Virus record (IMG/VR): IMGVR_UViG_3300044568_004391
Location: 32,001-96,000 of that record
DNA: 64,000 nt
Strand: one strand, 5' to 3'
DNA from: a virus
Below, piece after piece: positions 29,981 through 52,630 of this stretch (within the stretch, counting starts at the first letter, position 1; every line of letters begins with the position of its first letter). A program made the translations under genes and the position numbers. Below the pieces are notes generated by a model. The model was given only the letters and a program-made list of their open reading frames with translations. It was not told where the DNA came from and did not search any database.

Positions 29981-30877
29981 ATGAATGAATATATTAATCA
30001 AATAGTTTGTGACAACAGCGTTCATTTTATGAGAAATATAATGAATGAGAATTCGATTGATCTTATTATTACCAGTCCACCATACGGCGTTGGTATTGAT
30101 TATGACAGTTGGGATGATGATGAGGAGTTTGAGGATTACAAAAACTTTTCAAGGGAATGGTTGACCGAGGCTTACAGGGTTTTAAAATCTGATGGTAGAA
30201 TTTGTTTGAATATCCCATATGAAATCAATAGACAGAAGAAGGGTGGAAGGATCTTTTTCGCCTCTGAGATTTGGCAGATTATGAAGGAGATCGGATTTGG
30301 TTTCTTTGGTATTGTGGATTTGGAGGAGAGTTCACCACATAGAAGTAAAACTACTGCGTGGGGATCTTGGATGAGTCCTTCAGCTCCTTATATCTATAAC
30401 CCAAAAGAGTGTGTCATCTTGGCATATAAGAACTTATCCAAGAAACAGGTTAAGGGTACACCTGAGTGGCAGGGTGAATATCAGAGGGTTCCAAGTGAAA
30501 AGATTGAGGGTGAGTTCAGAAATAAGTTGGTTTATGATGAGAAGGACAAGAAGGATTTTATGGAACTTGTATTTGGTCAATGGAATTATTTTGCCGATAC
30601 AAGATCTTTGACCAAGGCGACCTTCAGTTTGGATATTCCTTGGAAAGCAATTAAGATCTTGTCATATAAAGAAGATATTATCTTTGATCCATTTAATGGT
30701 AGTGGAACCACGTGTTTGGCGGCGGAGAAACTCGGAAGAAAATGGATTGGATGTGAAATCAGTGAAAACTATTGTGAGGTGGCAAGAAAAAGAATTAAAG
30801 AATATCAGGCAGAAAGAAGCGCTGCCAAAACCTTATTTTGTGATGAAATTAAAACTGGAAGATTTTTGGACATATGA
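29981..30877 (+). CDS. Beta-class DNA methyltransferase (probably N4-cytosine)
   Basis: TSPPY and DPFNGSGTT. Confidence 0.9.
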   Translation: MNEYINQIVCDNSVHFMRNIMNENSIDLIITSPPYGVGIDYDSWDDDEEFEDYKNFSREWLTEAYRVLKSDGRICLNIPYEINRQKKGGRIFFASEIWQIMKEIGFGFFGIVDLEESSPHRSKTTAWGSWMSPSAPYIYNPKECVILAYKNLSKKQVKGTPEWQGEYQRVPSEKIEGEFRNKLVYDEKDKKDFMELVFGQWNYFADTRSLTKATFSLDIPWKAIKILSYKEDIIFDPFNGSGTTCLAAEKLGRKWIGCEISENYCEVARKRIKEYQAERSAAKTLFCDEIKTGRFLDI

Positions 30878-32355
30878 TAAAGAGATATAATTATTACAAC
30901 GAAGATCTGTATCGGATCGCAATTGACGAAGGGGTAAAGACCACTTCACAAGGGATTCTTTATTTCCCCACCGGCAAGTTCACGGGACGATCTCCCAAAG
31001 ACAGATATTTCTGTGATGGAGAATATGTTGATAAGGTGATAGACAAATCAAGGGAAATCAACCAAATCATATCAAGGGAAACTTATTCTAAACTCAAGAA
31101 TTCTTTGGAAGAACATATCAAGAATTCACCTGTGGAATATAAAACTTCAAGGGTAGTTTGTTATCATAAGAAGTTTCATACTTTGGTTGACCTTCATACC
31201 ACCCATGCATGGGCGAACATATTCTTCAATAATATGACCATCAATGCGACGGGGATACAAGCGGAAGGTGGAGGATTTTTTACCAAGTGGAAGGTTCTTC
31301 ACGGACCGGAGTTTGTTCCCCAAGAAACATACGAAGATCTTAAAAACCCAAACTTTGTCATCATAGATTTTGAGGATAAAACCATCATTATCGGTGGAAC
31401 CAGTTATACCGGTGAGATAAAGAAAAGCATCTTTACCGTTTTAAATACTATCTTTATTGATCACGGAGTTCTTCCGATGCATTGTTCGGCAAATGCAAAC
31501 TCCAAAAATGGAAAAGGGGTTAATCTATTTTTTGGTTTATCGGGAACAGGGAAGACAACTTTATCTTCGGATCCAAATAAGTTTTTTATCGGAGACGATG
31601 AACACGGATGGTTTGAAGATCATATCTTCAACTTCGAGGGAGGATGTTACGCAAAACTTATTAACCTCAAGAAAGAAAACGAACCAATCATTTGGGACTC
31701 CATTCATTCTCCTGATAGATTCAATCATACCAACTGTTCTTTGATGGAGAATATCGTCGTGGACGATGAGAATAACCCCGACTTTTCGGATTCATCAATT
31801 ACGGAGAATATCAGAGCATCATATTCATTGGGACAACTTCCTGAAGAGTTTATGGTAGATGATTTAGGGCTTGGAAAGAATGTCAAAAATATCTTCTTCT
31901 TATCTTTTGATGCTTTTGGTGTCTTACCTCCGATTTCAAAACTTGATTTGGATGACGCAGCAAGATTCTTCAAGATGGGATATACTTCCAAAGTGGCGGG
32001 AACGGAGGTGGGTGTGACCGAACCAACGGTGGTCTTTTCTACTTGTTTCGGTTCACCTTTCTTACCAAGAAAAGTGGAAGATTATGTGGATTTATTCAAG
32101 GAGAAAGTCCGAAAGTCGGGGTGTAATGTATGGTTGGTGAATACAGGGTTTGATGAAAATCTCAAAAGATATCCGATTGATATAACACGAAAAGTTATTA
32201 ATGGTGTGATCGACGGGAAGTATTCAGAGAAAACATTTGATTATCACGGACTCAAAATTCCCAACAGGATATTGGATCTTGATTTGATCACTCTCAAACC
32301 TGATATTGAAGAAGAAAGGATTGAGAAATTATTTGAACTTTTGGATCAACATTGA
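30874..32355 (+). CDS. pckA: Phosphoenolpyruvate carboxykinase (ATP)
   Basis: TGRSPKD, YTGEIKK, MHCSAN, GLSGTGKTTLS, IGDDEHGW, NFEGGCYAK. Confidence 0.95.
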   Translation: MIKRYNYYNEDLYRIAIDEGVKTTSQGILYFPTGKFTGRSPKDRYFCDGEYVDKVIDKSREINQIISRETYSKLKNSLEEHIKNSPVEYKTSRVVCYHKKFHTLVDLHTTHAWANIFFNNMTINATGIQAEGGGFFTKWKVLHGPEFVPQETYEDLKNPNFVIIDFEDKTIIIGGTSYTGEIKKSIFTVLNTIFIDHGVLPMHCSANANSKNGKGVNLFFGLSGTGKTTLSSDPNKFFIGDDEHGWFEDHIFNFEGGCYAKLINLKKENEPIIWDSIHSPDRFNHTNCSLMENIVVDDENNPDFSDSSITENIRASYSLGQLPEEFMVDDLGLGKNVKNIFFLSFDAFGVLPPISKLDLDDAARFFKMGYTSKVAGTEVGVTEPTVVFSTCFGSPFLPRKVEDYVDLFKEKVRKSGCNVWLVNTGFDENLKRYPIDITRKVINGVIDGKYSEKTFDYHGLKIPNRILDLDLITLKPDIEEERIEKLFELLDQH

Positions 32356-33460: not shown

Positions 33461-34863
33461 AAAAAGTAATTAACGAAGGTGGGATTAGAGACATAAACGC
33501 ATTATCCAAAAGATATCCGAAAGCAAAGATATATTTTCACCAAGATTTGGATGGTGTAACTTCTGCGTTGGGTATGAAGGAATATTTGGAATCAAATGGT
33601 ATAAAGGTCGTTGATGCTGAAATCATTCAATATGGTGATAAAGAGTTCTCGATCAAGAAGTTGGAAGCTGAAGGTGATATTATGCCAGTTTTAGTTGATT
33701 TTGCTCACGGAAAACCGATGTTCAAAATTCATACAGACCACCACGACAGACAAGCCGGAGCAGAGGACACCAAATCCAAATCATTCAGATCTGCAAGATC
33801 AAATATTGAAACAATATCACAAGTTCTGTCACCGAAAGATATATTTCCATCTGACGACATAAAGTTAATCTCCACCGTTGATTCTGCCAACTTCAAACCC
33901 TACGGAATTAAACCCCGTGACGTTATGAATTATATCCTTAAATTAGATAAGGAGGGAACTTTGGAGAAGAACAAGATGGCTCTTGGGTTGTTAACCAACA
34001 AACTTCTTTTGGCATATAAAAACAAACCAAACTTTATGGAGGAATTGGTTATGACTTCTTCACCTTCTTTGATGAATATCTATCAGAACATCAAAAAAAT
34101 TGCAAAGGAAAGAAGGTTTGCTTCACCCGAAGAAATGGCTCAAAACCAAGAAACATATATCAAATCTCAAAAAGAATCACCCAATGTCGTTTTTGAAGAT
34201 GGAATCATAAAACAATATGGTGGTGGTTCATTATTCAAACCAGGTTCTTATGACAGATATACACCATTCGAAAACTATCCCGACGCAAATTTCTTAATTA
34301 TTGCTTGGCCTTTGGGATTGGTTCAGGCAAGTTGTAATCCATTTAAAGAAGACAGAGCTCTCAAAGGTATTGACTTGGGTGAAATTAAAGATGAGATCCT
34401 CGAAGAAAACAAGGGTTGGATGAAAAAGGAAATGGTTCCTCTCTCAACTCTAAAATGGATCTCTGAAACATCTGTTGGTCCTGAAAGTGTTGGTTTTACA
34501 TCTTCCGACTTGAAAGCGTTTTATATGGACAAAGTTCAAGCGGGGAACGAAGAATATCTTTCAAGATTGGATCAAATTATGGATAAAAAGTTCTCTGAAC
34601 TAAATGAAGATGAACTTACAATATTAGATAGTTTTGCAATTCCATTTTATGACTTGGTGGTGGAAAACTCTGGAGGTCACAAATGTATAACTAATCTCTC
34701 AGGTCTTAATTATTTGAGAAGATCCAAGAGACCACCACAAGGTGATTATAAAAGAGAACCAGGAACGGAAGCCAAGTTCGTTCAAGGGGTGAAATTCTTC
34801 CAAGATCAGTTCTTTGAAAAACTGAAGGGTAGAATTCAAGGGGTTGAGACGGAATCGGAATAA
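33457..34863 (+). CDS. DHH-family phosphoesterase-like protein
   Basis: HQDLDG, VDF, TDHH and SGGH motifs. Confidence 0.65.
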   Translation: MKKVINEGGIRDINALSKRYPKAKIYFHQDLDGVTSALGMKEYLESNGIKVVDAEIIQYGDKEFSIKKLEAEGDIMPVLVDFAHGKPMFKIHTDHHDRQAGAEDTKSKSFRSARSNIETISQVLSPKDIFPSDDIKLISTVDSANFKPYGIKPRDVMNYILKLDKEGTLEKNKMALGLLTNKLLLAYKNKPNFMEELVMTSSPSLMNIYQNIKKIAKERRFASPEEMAQNQETYIKSQKESPNVVFEDGIIKQYGGGSLFKPGSYDRYTPFENYPDANFLIIAWPLGLVQASCNPFKEDRALKGIDLGEIKDEILEENKGWMKKEMVPLSTLKWISETSVGPESVGFTSSDLKAFYMDKVQAGNEEYLSRLDQIMDKKFSELNEDELTILDSFAIPFYDLVVENSGGHKCITNLSGLNYLRRSKRPPQGDYKREPGTEAKFVQGVKFFQDQFFEKLKGRIQGVETESE

Positions 34864-35204
34864 ATGACAAAGGGATCGCCTTCTTTGATATTGTGATCCT
34901 GACAATAACCACCGGGTAATTCCAAGACGATATTTCCAACTCCTGTGTATGACTCACATTGATCAGAATTACAGGGGGGACAATCGTGATGTATTTTATT
35001 TACAACATTATTTTTGATGAAAATTATATCCAATGGAATGATACAATTTTTCATCCAAAAACTATGAGATTTTCCATTCATCAAGAACACCATTGAATCA
35101 AAACCTTCAAATGTTTTATCCATCATGCCGTTCTCAATTTGATATGGTGTTGCACAAATCTTTGACTTTAGTATATTATTTTTTATTTTGGTTTTTACAA
35201 TCAT
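34836..35204 (-). CDS. DUF192 family protein
   Basis: FWMKN..IPLDIIF...VLELPGG. Confidence 0.85.
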   Translation of the reverse strand: MIVKTKIKNNILKSKICATPYQIENGMMDKTFEGFDSMVFLMNGKSHSFWMKNCIIPLDIIFIKNNVVNKIHHDCPPCNSDQCESYTGVGNIVLELPGGYCQDHNIKEGDPFVIYSDSVSTP

Positions 35205-35210
35205 AACTTT

Positions 35211-35756
35211 TTAATTACGTCTAAAAATAAACCTACCAACATTTATCATACTTCTAATTTCTTCATTTGTATATTTTTCTGATAGGTATTTGTTCAAATG
35301 CAAACTACCATCAACAGATTTGAGATTTTCAAGGGTTTTAATTTTTGTTTCTCTCACATCCAAACTACTACCAACAGATTGAAGTTTTGGAAGGGATTTG
35401 ATTTGTGTTCCTCTCAAACTTAAATAACCAACAACCGATTGAAGATTATCAAGGGATTCGATTGGCGTTCCTTTCAATTCTAAATAACCACCAACCGATT
35501 GAAGATTTCCAAGAAATTTAATTTTTGTCCTTTCCAAATCTAAAAAACCCGTAATCGAAACAAGTCCTTCAAGCCAAGTTAAATCACCATCATAGCCACC
35601 CAAATTTAATTTATCATCCAACGACCATCTTTTGATGTTCTTTTTTTGGATGAAGTTTTTTAGACCTTCAATTCCATCAGGGAAAAAAGAAAGACTTGGT
35701 ATTGCCAATACCTCTTCGGTTTCCTCTTTTAATATTTGTTTAATAAGTGATCTCAT
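35211..35756 (-). CDS. Variable LRR protein (4 repeats)
   Basis: LIKQILKEETEE leader; 20-aa NLQSVGGYL.L.GT.I.SL repeats; paralog of 48287-50264. Confidence 0.8.
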   Translation of the reverse strand: MRSLIKQILKEETEEVLAIPSLSFFPDGIEGLKNFIQKKNIKRWSLDDKLNLGGYDGDLTWLEGLVSITGFLDLERTKIKFLGNLQSVGGYLELKGTPIESLDNLQSVVGYLSLRGTQIKSLPKLQSVGSSLDVRETKIKTLENLKSVDGSLHLNKYLSEKYTNEEIRSMINVGRFIFRRN

Positions 35757-35825
35757 TTCCAATAAATACCCAACTCTTGATTAATTGAATTTATATTGTT
35801 AGGTTTAAGGACAGAACTTTTAATT

Positions 35826-37769: not shown

Positions 37770-38813
37770 ATGAAAGTAAAATTGGAATACATTTGGTTGG
37801 ATGGTTATGAACCAGAACCAAACCTAAGAAGTAAAGTCAAAGTTGTTGATGCAAAGAGACAGCAAGGAGTTGATCGAGATGTTTTTGGTATTGAACTTAA
37901 AGATTGTCCTGAATGGTCTTTTGATGGATCTTCCACCAATCAAGCGGAAGGTCACTTCTCTGATTGTGTCCTTAAACCTGTTTCCCTTTATCCTAATCCA
38001 CTAAACAAAGGAGTTATACCATCCTACTTTGTGATGTGTGAAGTTTATCTTCCTGATGGAACCCCTCATCCTTCAAATACGAGATCATCTATTGAAACAG
38101 AGGATGAAGATCTTTGGTTCGGTTTTGAACAAGAATATACTCTTGTAAAGGACGGAAGACCTTTGGGTTTCCCAAACAATGGTTATCCCGCTCCACAAGG
38201 AAAATACTACTGTGGTGTAGGTAATGGACAGGTCAACGGAAGAACTTTTGTTGATGAGCATTTGGAGATGTGTGTATACGCAGGGATTGATATTACAGGA
38301 ACCAACGCTGAGGTGATGCTCGGACAATGGGAATATCAGGTCTTCAGTAAGGGGAAGAAAAAAGCAGGTGATGATCTTTGGATCACACGATATATTTTGG
38401 AACAGATGTCCGAGAACTACGGATTTAAAATTGAATTCCACCCCAAACCTGTTCAAGGTGATTGGAATGGATCGGGACTTCACTGTAACTTCTCAAACAA
38501 GAGGATGAGAGAAAATGGTAGTAAGGAATATTTTGAGGGAATCTTCAAACAATTTGAGGATAGACACTGGTTACATATTGAAAACTATGGATCAGACAAC
38601 AACCTTCGTTTGACAGGAAAACACGAAACACAACATATCTCCAAATTCAGTTGGGGTGTATCAAATCGTGGAGCGTCAATCAGAGTTCCATTGAATACTA
38701 CACATAATAATTGGGCGAGTGGGTATTTGGAAGATCGTAGACCTGCTTCTCACGCTGATCCATATAAGATTGTGAAAGTAATTTCAGATTCTTTGGATTT
38801 AGTTGAAGTTTGA
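37770..38813 (+). CDS. glnA: Glutamine synthetase, type II
   Basis: EYIWLDG, WSFDGSST, FGFEQEY, NAEVMLGQWEYQ, DWNGSGLH, RLTGKHET, NRGASIRVP, YLEDRRP. Confidence 0.94.
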   Translation: MKVKLEYIWLDGYEPEPNLRSKVKVVDAKRQQGVDRDVFGIELKDCPEWSFDGSSTNQAEGHFSDCVLKPVSLYPNPLNKGVIPSYFVMCEVYLPDGTPHPSNTRSSIETEDEDLWFGFEQEYTLVKDGRPLGFPNNGYPAPQGKYYCGVGNGQVNGRTFVDEHLEMCVYAGIDITGTNAEVMLGQWEYQVFSKGKKKAGDDLWITRYILEQMSENYGFKIEFHPKPVQGDWNGSGLHCNFSNKRMRENGSKEYFEGIFKQFEDRHWLHIENYGSDNNLRLTGKHETQHISKFSWGVSNRGASIRVPLNTTHNNWASGYLEDRRPASHADPYKIVKVISDSLDLVEV

Positions 38814-42097: not shown

Positions 42098-43501
42098 ATG
42101 AATCGTTTCATCTCTTTTCTTGTTCTGATGTTTATGAGTACTTTTGTGTATTCACAAAAAAACACACCTTTTGGATGTATAACCTTTGGAGAAAATAAAA
42201 ACATTTTACCGATGGGTAGGTTGAAATCCAAATCAACCAATACACCCAAAGAAATCAGATTGGTATTTCACGTTTGTTATACTGACGCGATTCCATTGAG
42301 TGAAATTCCTGTTGAATCAATATATGGTGCGATTGATCAAGCCAATGTAGATTTCGAGGGAACTAACATCAGTTTTGTTTATGCAGGTCATGATTATATC
42401 AATATCCGAGAGTTCGCTTGGCACGACTCATTTGTCTCAGGTCAAGTTTGTTTCCCAACTTATAGAACTCAATCAACAATGATTTCTAACAAATACGCTT
42501 GGGATATTTCAGAGTATTGTAATGTTTATATTATCCCTAAAATGTGTTCCACTATCTTGGGATATGCCTTTATCACATATGGACCTGCAAATAAAGATGA
42601 CGGGGTTTGGGTTAAGACCGAGTCTTTTGGGTATGGACCTTGGCCACACGTAAACCCGAAGTATGTGGAAAACGAAACCTTTAGTCATGAGCTCGGTCAC
42701 TACTGTGGATTGTTTCACGTATTCAATAACACATCGTATTGTGGACAACAAGAGGCAAACATACCTTGTGAATATGAAGGTGATTTTGTATGTGATACTC
42801 CACCCACCAAACTCGCAAGAGGATGTCCTTCCTACCCTGTTGGATCATATTGTCCTGAAGTAAATTACGATGGTGGAGTTCCATATCGTGCGAACAACCA
42901 CATGGACTATTGTCCTGAACAATGTAGAGATGTATTTACTCCAGGTCAGATAGACCGAATGCATAGAATGTTGGACTTCCAAAGATATGAGTTATACACA
43001 GAAGAGCAAGTAACACCCTTCTGTTTGGGTGATTTCGATAAGAACGGAATGATTGGAACTGGTGATCTGTTGATTATATTGTCCCATTATGGTTGTGTGG
43101 AATGTGACTATGAGGAAGGAGATATGAATATGGATGCACTTGTTAATGTTTTGGACTTAAACTTCTTGTTGGCTTTTTGGGGTGATGTTTGTGGTGACGG
43201 GGTAGGACAGATCCAAGCCAAAAGATCAGGACCTCAACCCGAATTAGAAGATCCTTTCGAGATTATCAGTAACTATGATTTTCCTGAACGAGGAACTCCC
43301 ACGAAAGAAAAAGATCGTGAAGAAAAAAAGGAAGAACCTTCTTTTGGTCTTATGAATTTGGTAAAAGAAATTAAAAAAACGGCCCAATTTAAATTGGAAG
43401 AAATTGATGAACTTGATTTGAATACGTTATTTTCTGAATATGGTGTTGATAGTTTGATTGTGAATATCAACGAAGATGAGAAAATTGTGATTGAACGATA
43501 A
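42098..43501 (+). CDS. Secreted M43 (pappalysin/ulilysin-like) zinc metalloprotease with dockerin-like domain
   Basis: Signal peptide; HELGHYCGLFH, GDFVCDTPP, NHMDY; paired DFDKNG/DMNMDA Ca-binding repeats. Confidence 0.85.
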   Translation: MNRFISFLVLMFMSTFVYSQKNTPFGCITFGENKNILPMGRLKSKSTNTPKEIRLVFHVCYTDAIPLSEIPVESIYGAIDQANVDFEGTNISFVYAGHDYINIREFAWHDSFVSGQVCFPTYRTQSTMISNKYAWDISEYCNVYIIPKMCSTILGYAFITYGPANKDDGVWVKTESFGYGPWPHVNPKYVENETFSHELGHYCGLFHVFNNTSYCGQQEANIPCEYEGDFVCDTPPTKLARGCPSYPVGSYCPEVNYDGGVPYRANNHMDYCPEQCRDVFTPGQIDRMHRMLDFQRYELYTEEQVTPFCLGDFDKNGMIGTGDLLIILSHYGCVECDYEEGDMNMDALVNVLDLNFLLAFWGDVCGDGVGQIQAKRSGPQPELEDPFEIISNYDFPERGTPTKEKDREEKKEEPSFGLMNLVKEIKKTAQFKLEEIDELDLNTLFSEYGVDSLIVNINEDEKIVIER

Positions 43502-45843: not shown

Positions 45844-45886
45844 TTTAAAATTTGATTATGATAAAATTTTTAATTAAATTTTTATC

Positions 45887-46204
45887 ATGTCGATCACTCA
45901 AAAATACCTTACAATTAAAACAAGAACTTCTGGTTTCTCTTCACCGGCAGAATCCTATGTTGACAAAAGATTGGATCTAAATGAACTAATATGTCAAAAC
46001 TCATTTTCAACCTTTTATTTCAAATATGTCGGACCAAACACACTGGGTGTTAAGGATGGAGATATACTTGTTTTAGACAAGTCAGAAACACCAAAGGAAG
46101 GTGATTTGGTTGTCCTAACAGATAAGACATATTTTAAAATCCGTGAATACAAAGAACAGGATAATCTTTGGGGTAAAGTAACTTGGATCTTAACCAAAAA
46201 ATGA
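45887..46204 (+). CDS. umuD: UmuD-like Pol V accessory subunit (shortened, catalytic Ser apparently absent)
   Basis: [26 protein letters not shown]; directly upstream of umuC. Confidence 0.8.
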
Positions 46205-47406
46205 TGAAACGAAAGATCGGTATTATTGACTGCAACAATTTCTATGTTTCTTGTGAGAGGGTATTTAATCCAACTTCAATTGGAAAACCAACGGTAGTTC
46301 TATCCAATAATGATGGATGTGTAATTGCTAGATCACAAGAGGCTAAAGCGTTGGGTATAAAGATGGGTGAACCATTCTTTCAGAAAAGAGATTTTATGGA
46401 TCAACACAGGTTCTGTGTATATTCATCCAACTATAATCTATATGGTGATATGTCAGACAGGGTGATGAGTGTTATCAAAGAATATGCAAATGAAGTTGAG
46501 GTGTATTCTATTGATGAGGCATTCGTTGATTTTTCAAATATACCTGACGATGAACTTTTGGATCGTTTACATTTTATCAAAAACGAAGTGAAGAGAAAGG
46601 TGGGGATTCCAGTATCTATTGGTGTTGGACCGAATAAAACTTTGGCTAAGTTGACATCACATATTGCAAAACAAACACCCGGTTACGACGGGGTTTGTTC
46701 TTATTGGGGTTTGAAGAACTTCAGGAACATGATGTATAATGTTGAGGTTGATGAGGTGTGGGGAATTGGAAGAAAGTGGTCCAAGAAATTAAAGACAATC
46801 GGTGTGGAATCCATCGGTCAATTTATGAATATGTCGGATTATGTTGTTAGAAAGATGATGAACATAAATGGACTCAAAACCAAACACGAGTTGTTTGAGA
46901 TGTATTGTCATCCGATCCAGCTAAAGTCCAAGATGAAAAAGAATATTGCATCCACACGATCTTTTGGTGAGGATGTTGATCAGTTTGATCAGATTGCCGA
47001 AGCAATGTATTCCTACATAAAATCGGGAGTAAAGAAACTTCAAGACAACGAAATCATCGCATCACGGGCAACCATCTTTGTAAGTGGGAACAAACACAAA
47101 GATCAAGGACATTACAGATCCAAATTGGTTTTTTTCCAAGAACCAACACAAGATGTAGATATGATTTGGTCACAAGTATATCCTCTTCTCAAGAAGATAT
47201 ATTCAAATTCCAAAAAATATAAAAAGTGTGGAATCATCTTCAACGAATTAACTCCTGAAAATTCAAAACAGATTTCTTTGTTTACCGAACCCATCCAATT
47301 GGTGTCACCACCATCGAATAAGGAAAAGAGATGGGAGATGAAACAAGAATATGTATCACAAAAATATACGACATCTTGGAATGAACTACCTCTTGTCTAT
47401 GTTTAA
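46201..47406 (+). CDS. umuC: Y-family DNA polymerase V catalytic subunit
   Basis: [42 protein letters not shown]-terminal W.MK...S..YTT.W. Confidence 0.93.
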
Positions 47407-48286: not shown

Positions 48287-48886
48287 TCATAGTCTAACAA
48301 TTAAAGCACCAACATCCACCATACTTTTTATTTCTTCATTTGTTTTTGTTGATAAATAACTGTTCAAATAAAGTCTTGCACCAACAGATTTAAGATTTCC
48401 AAAGGATTCAATTTGTGTTCCTCTTATGTCCAAATAACCACCTACGGATTGAAGATTTCCAAGGGATTTAATTGGTGTTTTATTTAAATCCAAAGATGCT
48501 CCAACAGTCCTGAGATTTCCAAGGGATTCAATTGGAGTTTCTTCCAAATTCAAATCATCACCAACAGATTGAAGATTTCCAAGAGATTCAATTTGTGAGT
48601 TGTATAGGTTCAAATAACCATCAACCGATATAAGATTTTTGAAGGATTTGATTTCTGTTCCATATGCATTAAAATCACCACTAATAGAAACAAGACCTTC
48701 AAGCCAAGTTAAATCACCTTTATATCCACCCAAATCCAAATCATCATCCAACGACCATCTTGTGATGTTATTTTTTTTGATGAAGTTTTTTAGTCCTTCA
48801 ACTCCATCAGGGAAATAGTGAAGACCAGGTATTACAAATATCTCTTCGGTTTCCTCTTTTAATATTTTTTTGATTAGGTCTTTCAT
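48287..48886 (-). CDS. Variable LRR protein (5 repeats)
   Basis: MKDLIKKILKEETEE leader; 60-bp repeat units. Confidence 0.8.
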   Translation of the reverse strand: MKDLIKKILKEETEEIFVIPGLHYFPDGVEGLKNFIKKNNITRWSLDDDLDLGGYKGDLTWLEGLVSISGDFNAYGTEIKSFKNLISVDGYLNLYNSQIESLGNLQSVGDDLNLEETPIESLGNLRTVGASLDLNKTPIKSLGNLQSVGGYLDIRGTQIESFGNLKSVGARLYLNSYLSTKTNEEIKSMVDVGALIVRL

Positions 48887-49545
48887 TATCTAATAATTCT
48901 ACCACCAACATTTATCATACCTCTAATTTCTTCATCTGTATAATTCTTCAAAACGTATTTGTTTAACCACAAATTAGTACCAACATATTGAAGTTTTGGA
49001 AGGGATTCAATTTGTGTTCCTCTTATATCTAAATAATCACCAACCGACTGAAGATTTGGAAGGTCTTTAATTGGTGTTCCCTCCAAATCCAAACTACCAC
49101 CAACCGATTGAAGGTTTCCAAGGTCTTTAATTTGTGTTTTTCTTAAATCCAACCCACCACCAACCGATTGAAGATTTGGAAGGGATTCAATTTCTGTTCC
49201 TCTTAAATGTAAAAAACTACCAACCGATTGAAGATTTGGAAGGGATTTAATTTGTGTGCTTCTTATATCTAAATAACCACCAACAGATTGAAGATTTCCA
49301 AGAAATTTAATTTCTGTCCTTTCCAAATCCAAAAAACCCGTGATCGAAACAAGTCCTTCAATCCAAGTTAAATCATCTCCATATTCACGGAAATCCACAT
49401 CATCATCCAACGACCATCTTTTGATGTTCTTTTTTTGAATGAAGTTTTTTAATCCGTAAATTTCATCAGGAAAAAAACTAAGACTAGGTATTACAAATAC
49501 CTCTTCGGTTTCTTCTTTTAATATTTTTTTGATTAAGTCTTTCAT
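48886..49545 (-). CDS. Variable LRR protein (6 repeats)
   Basis: Same leader and caps; 60-bp repeat units. Confidence 0.8.
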   Translation of the reverse strand: MKDLIKKILKEETEEVFVIPSLSFFPDEIYGLKNFIQKKNIKRWSLDDDVDFREYGDDLTWIEGLVSITGFLDLERTEIKFLGNLQSVGGYLDIRSTQIKSLPNLQSVGSFLHLRGTEIESLPNLQSVGGGLDLRKTQIKDLGNLQSVGGSLDLEGTPIKDLPNLQSVGDYLDIRGTQIESLPKLQYVGTNLWLNKYVLKNYTDEEIRGMINVGGRIIR

Positions 49546-50264
49546 GGTCTTAAAATTCCACCACCAACATTTATTATATTTCTAATTTCTTCATTTGTAT
49601 ATTTTTCTGAAAGGAATTTGTTTAAAAATAAATCATATTTAACCGATTGAAGATTTTCAAAGGATTCAATTTGTGTTCTTCTTATATCTAAAGAACCACC
49701 AACAGATTGGAGTTTTGGAAGGGATTTAATTTTTGTTCCTCCTATAAACAAATTACCACCAACCGATTGAAGGTTTCCAAGGGATTTAACTTGTGTTCCA
49801 GTTAAATCCAAATGTTTACCAACATATTTAAGATTTGGAAGGGATTCTATTTGTGTTCCTCTTGTATCTAAAGACCTACCAACCGATTGAAGATTATCAA
49901 GGGATTTAATTTGTGTGCTTCTTATATCTAAATAACCACCAACCGATTGGAGATTTGGAAGGGATTTAATTTGTGTGCTTTTTATATCTAAATAACCACC
50001 AACCGATTGAAGATTATCAAGGGATTTAATTTTTTTTCCTTCCAAATCCAAATAACCACTAATGGAAACAAGACCTTCAAGCCAAGTTAAATCATCTCCA
50101 TATTCACGGAAATCCAAATCATCATCCAACGACCATCTTTTGATGTTCTTTTTTTGAATGAAGTTTTTTAATCCGTCAATTTCATCAGGAAAAAAACTAA
50201 GACCAGGTATTACAAATATCTCTTCGGTTTCTTCTTTTAATATTTTTTTGATTAAGTCTTTCAT
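49542..50264 (-). CDS. Variable LRR protein (7 repeats)
   Basis: Same leader and caps; minus-strand TATTTAT at 50273-50279. Confidence 0.8.
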   Translation of the reverse strand: MKDLIKKILKEETEEIFVIPGLSFFPDEIDGLKNFIQKKNIKRWSLDDDLDFREYGDDLTWLEGLVSISGYLDLEGKKIKSLDNLQSVGGYLDIKSTQIKSLPNLQSVGGYLDIRSTQIKSLDNLQSVGRSLDTRGTQIESLPNLKYVGKHLDLTGTQVKSLGNLQSVGGNLFIGGTKIKSLPKLQSVGGSLDIRRTQIESFENLQSVKYDLFLNKFLSEKYTNEEIRNIINVGGGILRP

Positions 50265-50321
50265 ATAATGTTATAAATACTTCAAAATTGTTTTGTATTT
50301 ATGTAATAAATTGAATTTATC

Positions 50322-50978
50322 ATGAAAACATTATTTATCTTGCCACTTTTATTAATTTTATCTTCTTGCCAAGAGAAGTCGGATATTGAAATTATAAAAG
50401 AAGTTGAACCAACATTAACGGAAGAAACAATAAAGAAAACAATTGGTTCTCAATCAGAGCAATATGGATCCGAAGATCTTTTGGATTTCCTTTCTGTTTA
50501 TGGAGAAAATGTAACGGACATCACACCAGCATTTATGAACTATTATCAAGATATTTCATCATCACAATCGAACTCTCTATATGACAACTTAACCGAACCC
50601 AACGGTAATTACAGTTACAGATGGTTCATCAACGAAAAACTTGTTTCAACAGATTATAATCTTGTATTAAATTCTTTGGTCAATGTCCTTCCTTGTGAAG
50701 GTGTTATGAGAGTTAAATTGGAAGTTACGGACAACAGGTTTAAAAGTGTATATGTAAGAGAAGAATATGGTTTTTTGGAATTTGTGGATAAAGATGATTT
50801 TACTGAATGGTGTGAATGTGGAGGTTGTCCTGACTATTGGGATGTCTTCTACGAATTTTACCCACCAAGAGATCCTTATTTTTATCAAACCAAACCTGCG
50901 AGATGGGATTTTGACAAAAACAACTTCATCAACTCCGAAGATTTGTTAATTTTCTTAAGTAAATACGGAGAACAATAA
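50322..50978 (+). CDS. Lipoprotein with dockerin-like Ca-binding motif
   Basis: Lipobox LSSC; EDLLDFLSVYGE and WDFDKNNFINSEDLLIFLSKYGE. Confidence 0.6.
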   Translation: MKTLFILPLLLILSSCQEKSDIEIIKEVEPTLTEETIKKTIGSQSEQYGSEDLLDFLSVYGENVTDITPAFMNYYQDISSSQSNSLYDNLTEPNGNYSYRWFINEKLVSTDYNLVLNSLVNVLPCEGVMRVKLEVTDNRFKSVYVREEYGFLEFVDKDDFTEWCECGGCPDYWDVFYEFYPPRDPYFYQTKPARWDFDKNNFINSEDLLIFLSKYGEQ

Positions 50979-51024: not shown

Positions 51025-51486
51025 CTAGATCATACCCAAAGAAGTTTCTTTGGACTTCTTTCTAAGTTTCTTCAAGGTAGAGTAAAAAGGGTGGGATCTA
51101 TTTCCTCTGATGTTCAAAGGTAAGTTAAGTTCTTTGATCAATTTAGACTCTCTGTCTTCATAATCTTCACAAACTTCATATCTGACCTTCATCTCTTTCC
51201 TTAAGAACTCATCTACGATCTCTTTGGAAGAAACCATATTTCCCACCAAAAGGGCAGAGAGAGTTTGACGTAACGTAGACACAAATCCTGATCTAATGGA
51301 TGAATGGGAATGAGAGTCATTCAGGTGCCAATTCAGTCGTTCATTTATATTTTTGGCAAGACCGATATATACCAAGAACATATCATCTTCTTTCAAACAC
51401 TCGGACACATCAATCCCCAACTTCTCGGCACCATTTTTACTTACATACCAATAATAAACGCCGCTCAAAGAGGGGAAGTTCTCCAT
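51025..51486 (-). CDS. GIY-YIG nuclease family protein
   Basis: GVY...VYIG.A.NINERL..H...STLR...E..LI...PLN. Confidence 0.8.
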   Translation of the reverse strand: MENFPSLSGVYYWYVSKNGAEKLGIDVSECLKEDDMFLVYIGLAKNINERLNWHLNDSHSHSSIRSGFVSTLRQTLSALLVGNMVSSKEIVDEFLRKEMKVRYEVCEDYEDRESKLIKELNLPLNIRGNRSHPFYSTLKKLRKKSKETSLGMI

Positions 51487-51508: not shown

Positions 51509-52630
51509 TTATTTTACACAAGTTTGTCCTATACCTGTTAAGAAAATTAAAAAGTCCTGTGAACTAACAAATCCATCGGCATCGAGATCACACTTATAAC
51601 ATTGACCACTTTCTGTGGTGGTTCCGTGACAACTCAAATAGATAAGAAAATCTTGTGAGGTGACTAAACCATCATTATCCAAATCCAATAAACAATTTAA
51701 AGAAAGAGTTTTGAATACATCTTTCCTGTTTTGGTTTACATAACTATGCATTCTGTTGATCTGACCATTGGTAAAACTGCGCCGACAATTATTGGCAAGG
51801 TAATCCATATGATTATCTTGGACATAACCAAACCAGGGATCAGATTCCAAAATGATCACATTACAACCTGGCGTGCAGTCGGGGACAAAGTTAGATCTTT
51901 GAAATGGTGGGGTGTCACAAACAAGATCTCCTGTCGTTCCGCAATCCAATCCATAATTTTCACAAGAGAACGCACCATTAAAGGTATGAAACAAACCAAG
52001 ATAATGACCGACCTCATGGACAAGAGTTGCGTTTCTGTGATATGAAGATGGGTTCAAAGAGAAGGTGGAAGTTCTAATCCAGATCCCGTCAGGTGGTTTG
52101 GGTGCGGGATTGATGATGGTTGCTCCGAAGGGTGGGATAAACGAAAAACCAAGAGAATTATATACTTTGGGTTGAATAAAGATATTGAGAGTTGTGTTGG
52201 GATTTACACTCATGGTATTACCAATTTCAAATAGTTTTGAAGAACCTGGCGGATACATAGCGGGAAGTTTGCTACTATTCATAGGTTCGGTCATATATTC
52301 TTGATACCAAGAGAAATCTTTCAGAGGTTTCCGATTGATTGAAACAAGAACAAATCTAAATTTTGCTTTATTGAATTTAATATTCAAATCATTTAGAGCA
52401 ACCAACAAGGTGGAGTCAGAAACATTCAACAACTGATCGTCATAGAGGACATGGAAGACGATGGGGATTTCTTTGTATGTAATCGGATCGGAGGATTTAT
52501 TGGATAGTCTAGCAGATTTACGAGACAAAGAAGAGAAATCTTTTTTGGAGGTTTGAGTTCCACATTCTTCTTGAGAGAAAGATCCAAATGATATAAAAGA
52601 CAAAAGTATTAATAAGATATAGTTTTTCAT
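51509..52630 (-). CDS. Secreted M43 zinc metalloprotease with dockerin-like domain
   Basis: Signal peptide, CGT cysteine switch, IPIVFHV, HEVGHYLGLFHTF, GDLVCDTPP, NHMDY; DLDNDG/DLDADG repeats. Confidence 0.87.
   Translation of the reverse strand: MKNYILLILLSFISFGSFSQEECGTQTSKKDFSSLSRKSARLSNKSSDPITYKEIPIVFHVLYDDQLLNVSDSTLLVALNDLNIKFNKAKFRFVLVSINRKPLKDFSWYQEYMTEPMNSSKLPAMYPPGSSKLFEIGNTMSVNPNTTLNIFIQPKVYNSLGFSFIPPFGATIINPAPKPPDGIWIRTSTFSLNPSSYHRNATLVHEVGHYLGLFHTFNGAFSCENYGLDCGTTGDLVCDTPPFQRSNFVPDCTPGCNVIILESDPWFGYVQDNHMDYLANNCRRSFTNGQINRMHSYVNQNRKDVFKTLSLNCLLDLDNDGLVTSQDFLIYLSCHGTTTESGQCYKCDLDADGFVSSQDFLIFLTGIGQTCVK

Follow-up and report, generated by a model that had tools for sequence, protein, structure and literature searches.

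A recombining family of LRR genes with a variable face and a shared leader peptide in uncultured phages

The phage fragment analysed here carries four members of a large, virus-specific and uncharacterised family of LRR proteins, in which one face of the repeat domain appears to be under diversifying selection and the framework under purifying selection. Comparison of the coding sequences supports this conclusion well, and it supports equally well the view that unequal recombination between repeat units and between tandem paralogues can alter both repeat number and gene number. The proteins begin with a leader for which the evidence moderately supports a role as a portable functional peptide on late genes. 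We therefore put forward, tentatively and at somewhat less than an even chance, the reading that the family consists of late-expressed binders that would be loaded into the phage head through the leader, clipped, and injected to bind fast-evolving host proteins.

The four genes, their fold and their family

The window, a 64-kb stretch of DNA corresponding to positions 32,001-96,000 of the virus record IMGVR_UViG_3300044568_004391 (152 kb, ~52% complete), contains all four LRR genes, each on the minus strand. Three of them form a tandem array, which starts with a gene for a 240-aa protein (49542..50264) and continues with genes for proteins of 219 aa (48886..49545) and 199 aa (48287..48886), overlapping their respective upstream neighbours by 4 nt and 1 nt. 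The fourth, a dispersed mosaic gene for a protein of 181 aa, occupies 35211..35756, with the ATG at 35756 as its most likely start. A search of the whole 152-kb record for a fifth copy found none. All four genes share a 15-aa leader, an N-cap and a C-cap. When their products are cut in register into a 62-aa N-region, 20-aa units, a C-cap unit and a tail of 17-19 aa, the array members have 7, 6 and 5 units, respectively, and the dispersed gene has 4, in each case followed by the C-cap unit. A preliminary description, based on the letters of the sequence, had reported four ORFs at these positions with a common leader and caps and with lengths differing by whole units; the ORFs are there, the 20-aa register bears out the 4/5/6/7 series, and every peptide that it quoted is present in the genes. 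The family proteins are small (19-27 kDa) and stand-alone, with neither cysteine nor a signal peptide, and their pI ranges from 4.5 to 9.3, several members being acidic (pI 4.5-5).

The AlphaFold2 model of the 240-aa gene product, computed from a 48-sequence alignment, is an LRR beta-solenoid (mean pLDDT 93.9, pTM 0.85) with short strands at unit positions 5-6, 9-11 and 19 in every unit. The LRR core of the 20-aa unit comprises L10, L/I12, T15 (replacing Asn) and I17, plus L20, L3 and V6. In searches with Foldseek and VIA-align, the top matches were all LRR proteins, the general LRR background lying at Z ~12. The best structure was chain 0 of 8z5u, the Vibrio protein FlrP (Z 15.7, rmsd 3.2 A over 174 residues, 29% identity; E 2.8e-19 for the sequence match), a match that sets the structural class and carries no information on the function of the phage protein. 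The confident model together with the LRR-only structure matches substantiates the LRR fold proposed earlier for these genes. Among Pfam families, LRR_4 scored 23.6-24 bits against a cut-off of 27, and the related Recep_L_domain, with 23.7-39.6 bits against a cut-off of 21.8, was the sole match above its cut-off and a weak one; PHROGs provided nothing useful for the LRR genes.

The protein database contains 303 homologues, with lengths from 140 to 240 in 20-residue steps, and 100 in-register family members have between 2 and 7 units. In the viral contigs scanned, 109 stretches matched; tandem arrays are common among them, with 4 genes in contig L013, 6 in L016, 10 in L068 and 20 in both L046 and L047. 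The array at 1391-16034 of L046, a viral contig of ~130 kb, is made up of 20 tandem LRR paralogues of 152-583 aa, and the same is found in L047; the 583-aa gene of L046 joins two complete copies in frame. Elsewhere, family LRR bodies are fused to larger unrelated N-terminal domains (401 aa at L060 3446-4651; 324 aa at L053 6897-7871), and thus the LRR module also serves as a domain. The 30 neighbouring clusters in the ESM Atlas are all viral, and none has a known function. Cellular genomes gave 14 matches, about half of which are on contigs, mostly short, in Bacteroidota MAGs and probably represent binned phage DNA. Full-text literature searches turned up no publication on families of LRR proteins in phages of this kind.

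Among isolates, the relatives of this phage come nearest by capsid to a Flavobacterium phage; its capsid is just 40% identical, and the LRR family is absent from it. A ferredoxin-like neighbour had suggested a pelagiphage or a cyanophage-like T4 phage. This reading was dropped, as most large ORFs lack a PHROG, and it is also countered by the Flavobacterium-phage-nearest capsid of the relatives and by the matches in Bacteroidota MAGs. Edwardsiella phage Edno5, considered as an isolate for comparison, has a remote LRR gene in an early, lysogeny-side region; as this gene has no leader, it was uninformative.

The genes around the LRR copies are diverse. Just upstream of the array, on the same strand, lies a gene for a GIY-YIG endonuclease (51025-51486, minus strand; GIY_YIG_2, 94 bits), which could promote local recombination. 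Two genes encode M43 metallopeptidases (42098-43501, plus strand; 51509-52630, minus strand), the second of which also has a dockerin/EF-hand-like Ca-binding module. Six nucleotides downstream of the dispersed LRR copy and on the same strand is a DUF192 gene (34836-35204, minus strand), probably co-transcribed with it. The window further contains two auxiliary metabolic genes, for a full-length ATP-dependent PEP carboxykinase (30874-32355; 468 bits) and a glutamine-synthetase-like protein (37770-38813). A gene for a UmuC-like DNA polymerase of the Y family, along with the small ORF that precedes it (45845-47403), is missing from L013, a relative otherwise ~96% identical, so that the surroundings of the LRR array constitute an indel hotspot.

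A variable face and recombination between units and genes

Variation between the repeat units is confined to a few positions. In a set of 178 distinct internal units, taken from 100 family members, almost invariant residues (0.05-0.95 bit) occupy positions 2-7, 10, 12, 15, 17, 19 and 20, and high entropy is found only at positions 8, 9, 11, 13, 14 and 16 (1.9-2.8 bits), which are the x positions of the LxxLxLxxNxL motif (L10, L12, T15, I17). When solvent exposure is deduced from the DSSP strands and the LRR motif, the variable positions are predicted to point outward from the strand x-L-x-L-x-x and from the following turn, on one face. The outward strand face and the turn are where LRR proteins bind ligands. 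By the same motif and strand pattern, unit positions 4, 5, 18 and 19 face outward on other sides and vary much less; exposure alone is therefore insufficient to explain the variability.

To compare synonymous and non-synonymous change, Nei-Gojobori counting was applied to 191 independent unit pairs with at least 85% nt identity. Omega was 1.51 at the variable positions (binomial p=0.002 versus neutrality) and 0.30 at the framework positions (Fisher 1e-37 between the site classes), and pN/pS reached 3.0, 3.9 and 2.3 at unit positions 9, 11 and 13, respectively; these values come from paralogous 60-nt units, that is, from short segments compared without a tree and with recombination ignored. The unit-level test replaced a dN/dS analysis of orthologues, for which only 8 independent pairs with too few substitutions were available. 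In the orthologues of the 181-aa gene, the framework has accumulated 0 non-synonymous and 6 synonymous changes, and the variable sites 6 non-synonymous and 1 synonymous. The contrast between a fixed framework and hypervariable positions, noticed at the outset from the sequence, thus holds in the entropy of the 178 units and in the two omega values.

The dispersed gene is a mosaic, as had been suspected from its peptides. Within its first 246 nt, informative sites are 48287-like at first and, from near nt 190-205, 48886-like (max-chi-square, 10,000 permutations, p=0.0008); its first unit has 95% nt identity to the first unit of the 48886 gene, and its C-cap is nearest to that of the 49542 gene. 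Within the array, the N-region of the 48886 gene has 97% nt identity to that of the 49542 gene. The cap units cluster by position, and the internal units of the 219-aa and 240-aa genes are alike whatever their position, as is expected of internal duplications.

A comparison with L013, a relative with flanks 93-96% identical to the window, extends this picture to the number of genes. Its array has four genes, of which those for the 219-aa and 199-aa proteins are 99.4% and 96.7% identical in nt sequence to their counterparts in the window, and in place of the 240-aa gene there are two genes, for proteins of 140 aa and 160 aa. The first 336 nt of the 240-aa gene are collinear with the 140-aa gene and its last 272 nt with the 160-aa gene. 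Gene and repeat number therefore differ between near-identical genomes. Orthologues of the 181-aa gene in five related contigs are all 181 aa long and 92-100% identical. The preliminary description had proposed a recombination-diversified repertoire of binders, an idea that would have been at odds with genes fixed across relatives; L013 differs in both gene and repeat number, and the LRR fold, the variability of the x positions with omega >1, and the mosaic breakpoint likewise speak for such a repertoire.

A portable leader and a late-type promoter element

The leader of the 240-aa gene (codons 1-15; 50220..50264, minus strand) consists of an amphipathic helix followed by I-L-K-E and an acidic stretch, and the equivalent leaders of the other three LRR genes lie at 49501-49545, 48842-48886 and 35712-35756, also on the minus strand. 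In the AlphaFold2 model, residues 2-12 form a detached helix of low confidence (pLDDT 58 for residues 1-10), which is followed by an acidic linker, the folded domain beginning near residue 17.

The leader is found well beyond the LRR genes. In related contigs, 178 ORFs start with this leader type, and 72 of them are non-LRR. Three contigs (L069, L074 and L078) have the first 13 residues identical to the leader of the window on an unrelated body of 132-157 aa, and in a more distant clade the leader variant MKIIITE heads more than 30 different bodies. Across 44 pairs of adjacent paralogues, leader codons 2-12 gave pS 0.45 and pN 0.06 (omega ~0.10), so that the constraint acts on the peptide rather than on the RNA or DNA. 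The motif [ILVM]-x-E occurs within the first 20 residues of 125 of the 141 family genes (89%), as against 39% of control ORFs, which makes this hydrophobic-x-Glu pattern a weakly specific sign of a protease motif. Its Glu is mostly at residue 7 or 11, and the I-L-K-E of the window leader has Glu 11. In this genome, the exact leader is confined to the four LRR genes, the non-LRR candidates being look-alikes, namely a 393-aa protein without a Pfam match and an M23 peptidase with a peptidoglycan-binding domain (L082:16163-16900, plus strand, equivalent to G000 132163-132900). The N-terminus of the M23 peptidase contains L-E-L-E, and the protein is a candidate virion-borne wall hydrolase.

Both LRR loci are preceded by the promoter-like element TATTTAT on the minus strand, at 50273..50279, 15 nt before the ATG of the first gene of the array, and at 35762..35768, 12 nt before the ATG of the dispersed copy. 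The element occurs within 30 nt upstream of the start in 38 of 201 genes, the highest count among the permutations of its composition; TATATTT reached 26, and the other top permutations mostly 7-12. It is absent before all four of the genes thyA, PEPCK, glnA and umuC of this genome. In two relatives, G001 and G002, both the gene for the prohead protease and the scaffold-capsid operon have the element upstream, as do half of the first or isolated LRR genes in other contigs. This distribution fits a late promoter, as far as position and sequence can tell, and the element may not be exclusive to late genes. A lipoprotein-like gene divergent from the LRR array (50322-50978) also has TATTTAT upstream.

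Neither a prohead protease nor a capsid gene was found in the 152-kb fragment, which represents about half of the genome. The LRR family occurs together with Peptidase_S77 and Gp23 in three near-complete relatives, G001 (295 kb), G002 (282 kb) and G003; the LRR proteins of these protease- and capsid-bearing relatives have only 35-45% identity to those of the present phage. The N-terminus is shared between the capsid proteins of two near-complete relatives (L101 9664-11508 and L102 8978-10834), and its residues 20-23, V-I-K-E, are similar to the I-L-K-E in the leader of the LRR proteins and may mark a propeptide cut site.

Candidate roles and known counterparts

The closest precedent for the leader is provided by the internal proteins of phage T4, which have nothing in common but a capsid-targeting sequence (PMC3012670, PMC5694885). 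The T4 protease cuts after Glu, in the case of Alt at ITE-6, and the internal protein IPI* is an injected inhibitor of the host restriction enzyme GmrSD (PMC3012670, PMC5694885). The likeness to IPI, IPII, IPIII and Alt lies in a set of diverse, fast-evolving small proteins with only a short N-terminal leader in common, and in a T4-type lineage with a gp21-type protease, known here from genes of the relatives; moreover, the ITE-6 site of Alt and the phage leader variants ending in I-L-K-E (Glu 11) or I-T-E (Glu 7) are alike. The differences are that neither the leader nor the LRR proteins show sequence homology to the T4 leader or internal proteins, and that the cargo here, for which packaging is argued by analogy, is a modular repeat binder belonging to a multigene family with several acidic members. 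On this precedent, the LRR genes would be expressed late, and the leader would act like the T4 capsid-targeting sequence by docking the protein on the scaffolding core. A T4-type prohead protease would clip the leader after Glu, and the mature LRR proteins would be injected together with the DNA and would then bind fast-evolving host proteins, most plausibly those of defence, as IPI* does GmrSD. Head loading, cleavage and injection are steps that we infer from the T4 analogy, and host defence proteins as the targets are speculative. The preliminary description had spoken of a packaging leader; the part of that phrase that stands is a portable, peptide-constrained leader with I-L-K-E, a late-type promoter and the T4-type protease of the lineage, and its packaging and cleavage are carried over from T4. 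Diverse intracellular targets would be in keeping with the breadth of pI values and the lack of cysteine. Against head loading, the T4 internal proteins are mostly basic, whereas the LRR proteins span pI 4.5-9.3.

The same observations could be read in other ways. The proteins might be late adhesins on the virion surface or associated with fibres, attached through the leader or N-cap, that recognise variable host surface molecules and so tune host range. The late-type promoter would suit such a role, diversifying selection on one face and copy-number variation are typical of receptor-binding proteins, and the array is adjoined by secreted proteases and lipoproteins; however, the LRR proteins have neither a signal peptide nor cysteine, no anchor or tail-fibre domain was recognisable in them with Pfam or PHROGs, and the occurrence of the same leader on dozens of unrelated small proteins and in 20-gene arrays is more in line with a cargo tag than with a stoichiometric structural site. 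We regard adhesins as unlikely. We likewise give a low probability to binders that are never packaged and act inside the cell on host or rival-phage proteins late in infection, with the leader as a helix for interaction or stability. A peptide-constrained leader modelled as a free helix would suit docking to any protein, for example a common phage partner, and the acidic members (pI 4.5-5) are unlike the classic basic internal proteins. Such binders would, however, leave unexplained the conserved hydrophobic-x-Glu after the helix and the T4-type protease of the lineage, and they have no known precedent, whereas the capsid-targeting sequence has one.

Quite improbable, in our judgement, are chaperones or assembly factors that co-evolve with variable structural proteins of the phage itself, such as fibres: the promoter is of late type, LRR domains are commonly scaffolds and FlrP is a structural spacer, but the arrays do not lie beside structural genes in the window, and a gene number varying from 1 to 20 between phages would be odd for such factors. 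Hypervariable positions within a fixed scaffold are also what targets of a diversity-generating retroelement would display, or selfish or decaying repeats without function. A search of the 152-kb record for a reverse transcriptase (RVT_1) found none, whereas control genomes were matched, and a diversity-generating retroelement is unlikely for this reason; all copies are intact ORFs, with a framework omega of 0.30 and a confident fold, which argues against junk. Taken together, these last two explanations are very improbable.

Three groups of cellular LRR proteins help to place the injected-binder reading. FlrP, part of the polar flagellar motor of Vibrio, is an LRR beta-solenoid of 21.5 kDa that attaches to the flagellar rod; like the phage proteins, it has 20-residue units and is a small single-domain protein binder. 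It differs in being a fixed structural spacer with a Sec signal peptide, located in the periplasm, and in lacking the leader, the multigene family, the hypervariable face and the phage-type N-cap and C-cap. The LRR domains of YopM, IpaH and SspH share short units of 20-22 residues (fold Z 11.5-12.3, sequence E 1e-3 to 4e-7); these type III effectors are delivered into a target cell to bind its proteins, and a comparable delivery is what we would expect of the phage proteins, which differ in their caps and phage origin and have no NEL ligase domain and no T3SS signal. With the VLRs of lamprey and hagfish, the phage family shares an LRR scaffold, a variable strand face, a variable number of modules and diversity through recombination of units. 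The VLRs, however, arise by somatic joining of incomplete cassettes and carry LRRNT and LRRCT caps rich in Cys, whereas each phage copy is a complete, cysteine-free germline gene that runs from a start codon through both caps to a stop. The earlier comparison with lamprey VLRs can therefore be retained as a functional analogy, and not as a shared mechanism, given the complete germline genes, the lack of cysteine caps and no sign of somatic assembly.

In its broadest form, the injected-binder reading would give T4-type jumbo phages of Bacteroidota a head-loaded, recombining germline repertoire of LRR proteins, addressed by the leader, trimmed by the protease and injected against variable host defences; as a whole, this is a rather unlikely proposition, if one worth stating. 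If the leader is indeed a head-loading tag, the three or four internal proteins of T4 would be generalised to whole arsenals, and the tag would be a natural way of addressing cargo into capsids. Known phage counter-defence proteins mostly have one-off folds, and a modular repeat scaffold would represent a different strategy. A selected binding face combined with length and copy number shuffled by recombination would parallel the LRRs of immune receptors and of injected bacterial effectors. Since the family is abundant in uncultured phages and uncharacterised, hundreds of genes would gain an annotation from just one virion proteome or pull-down.
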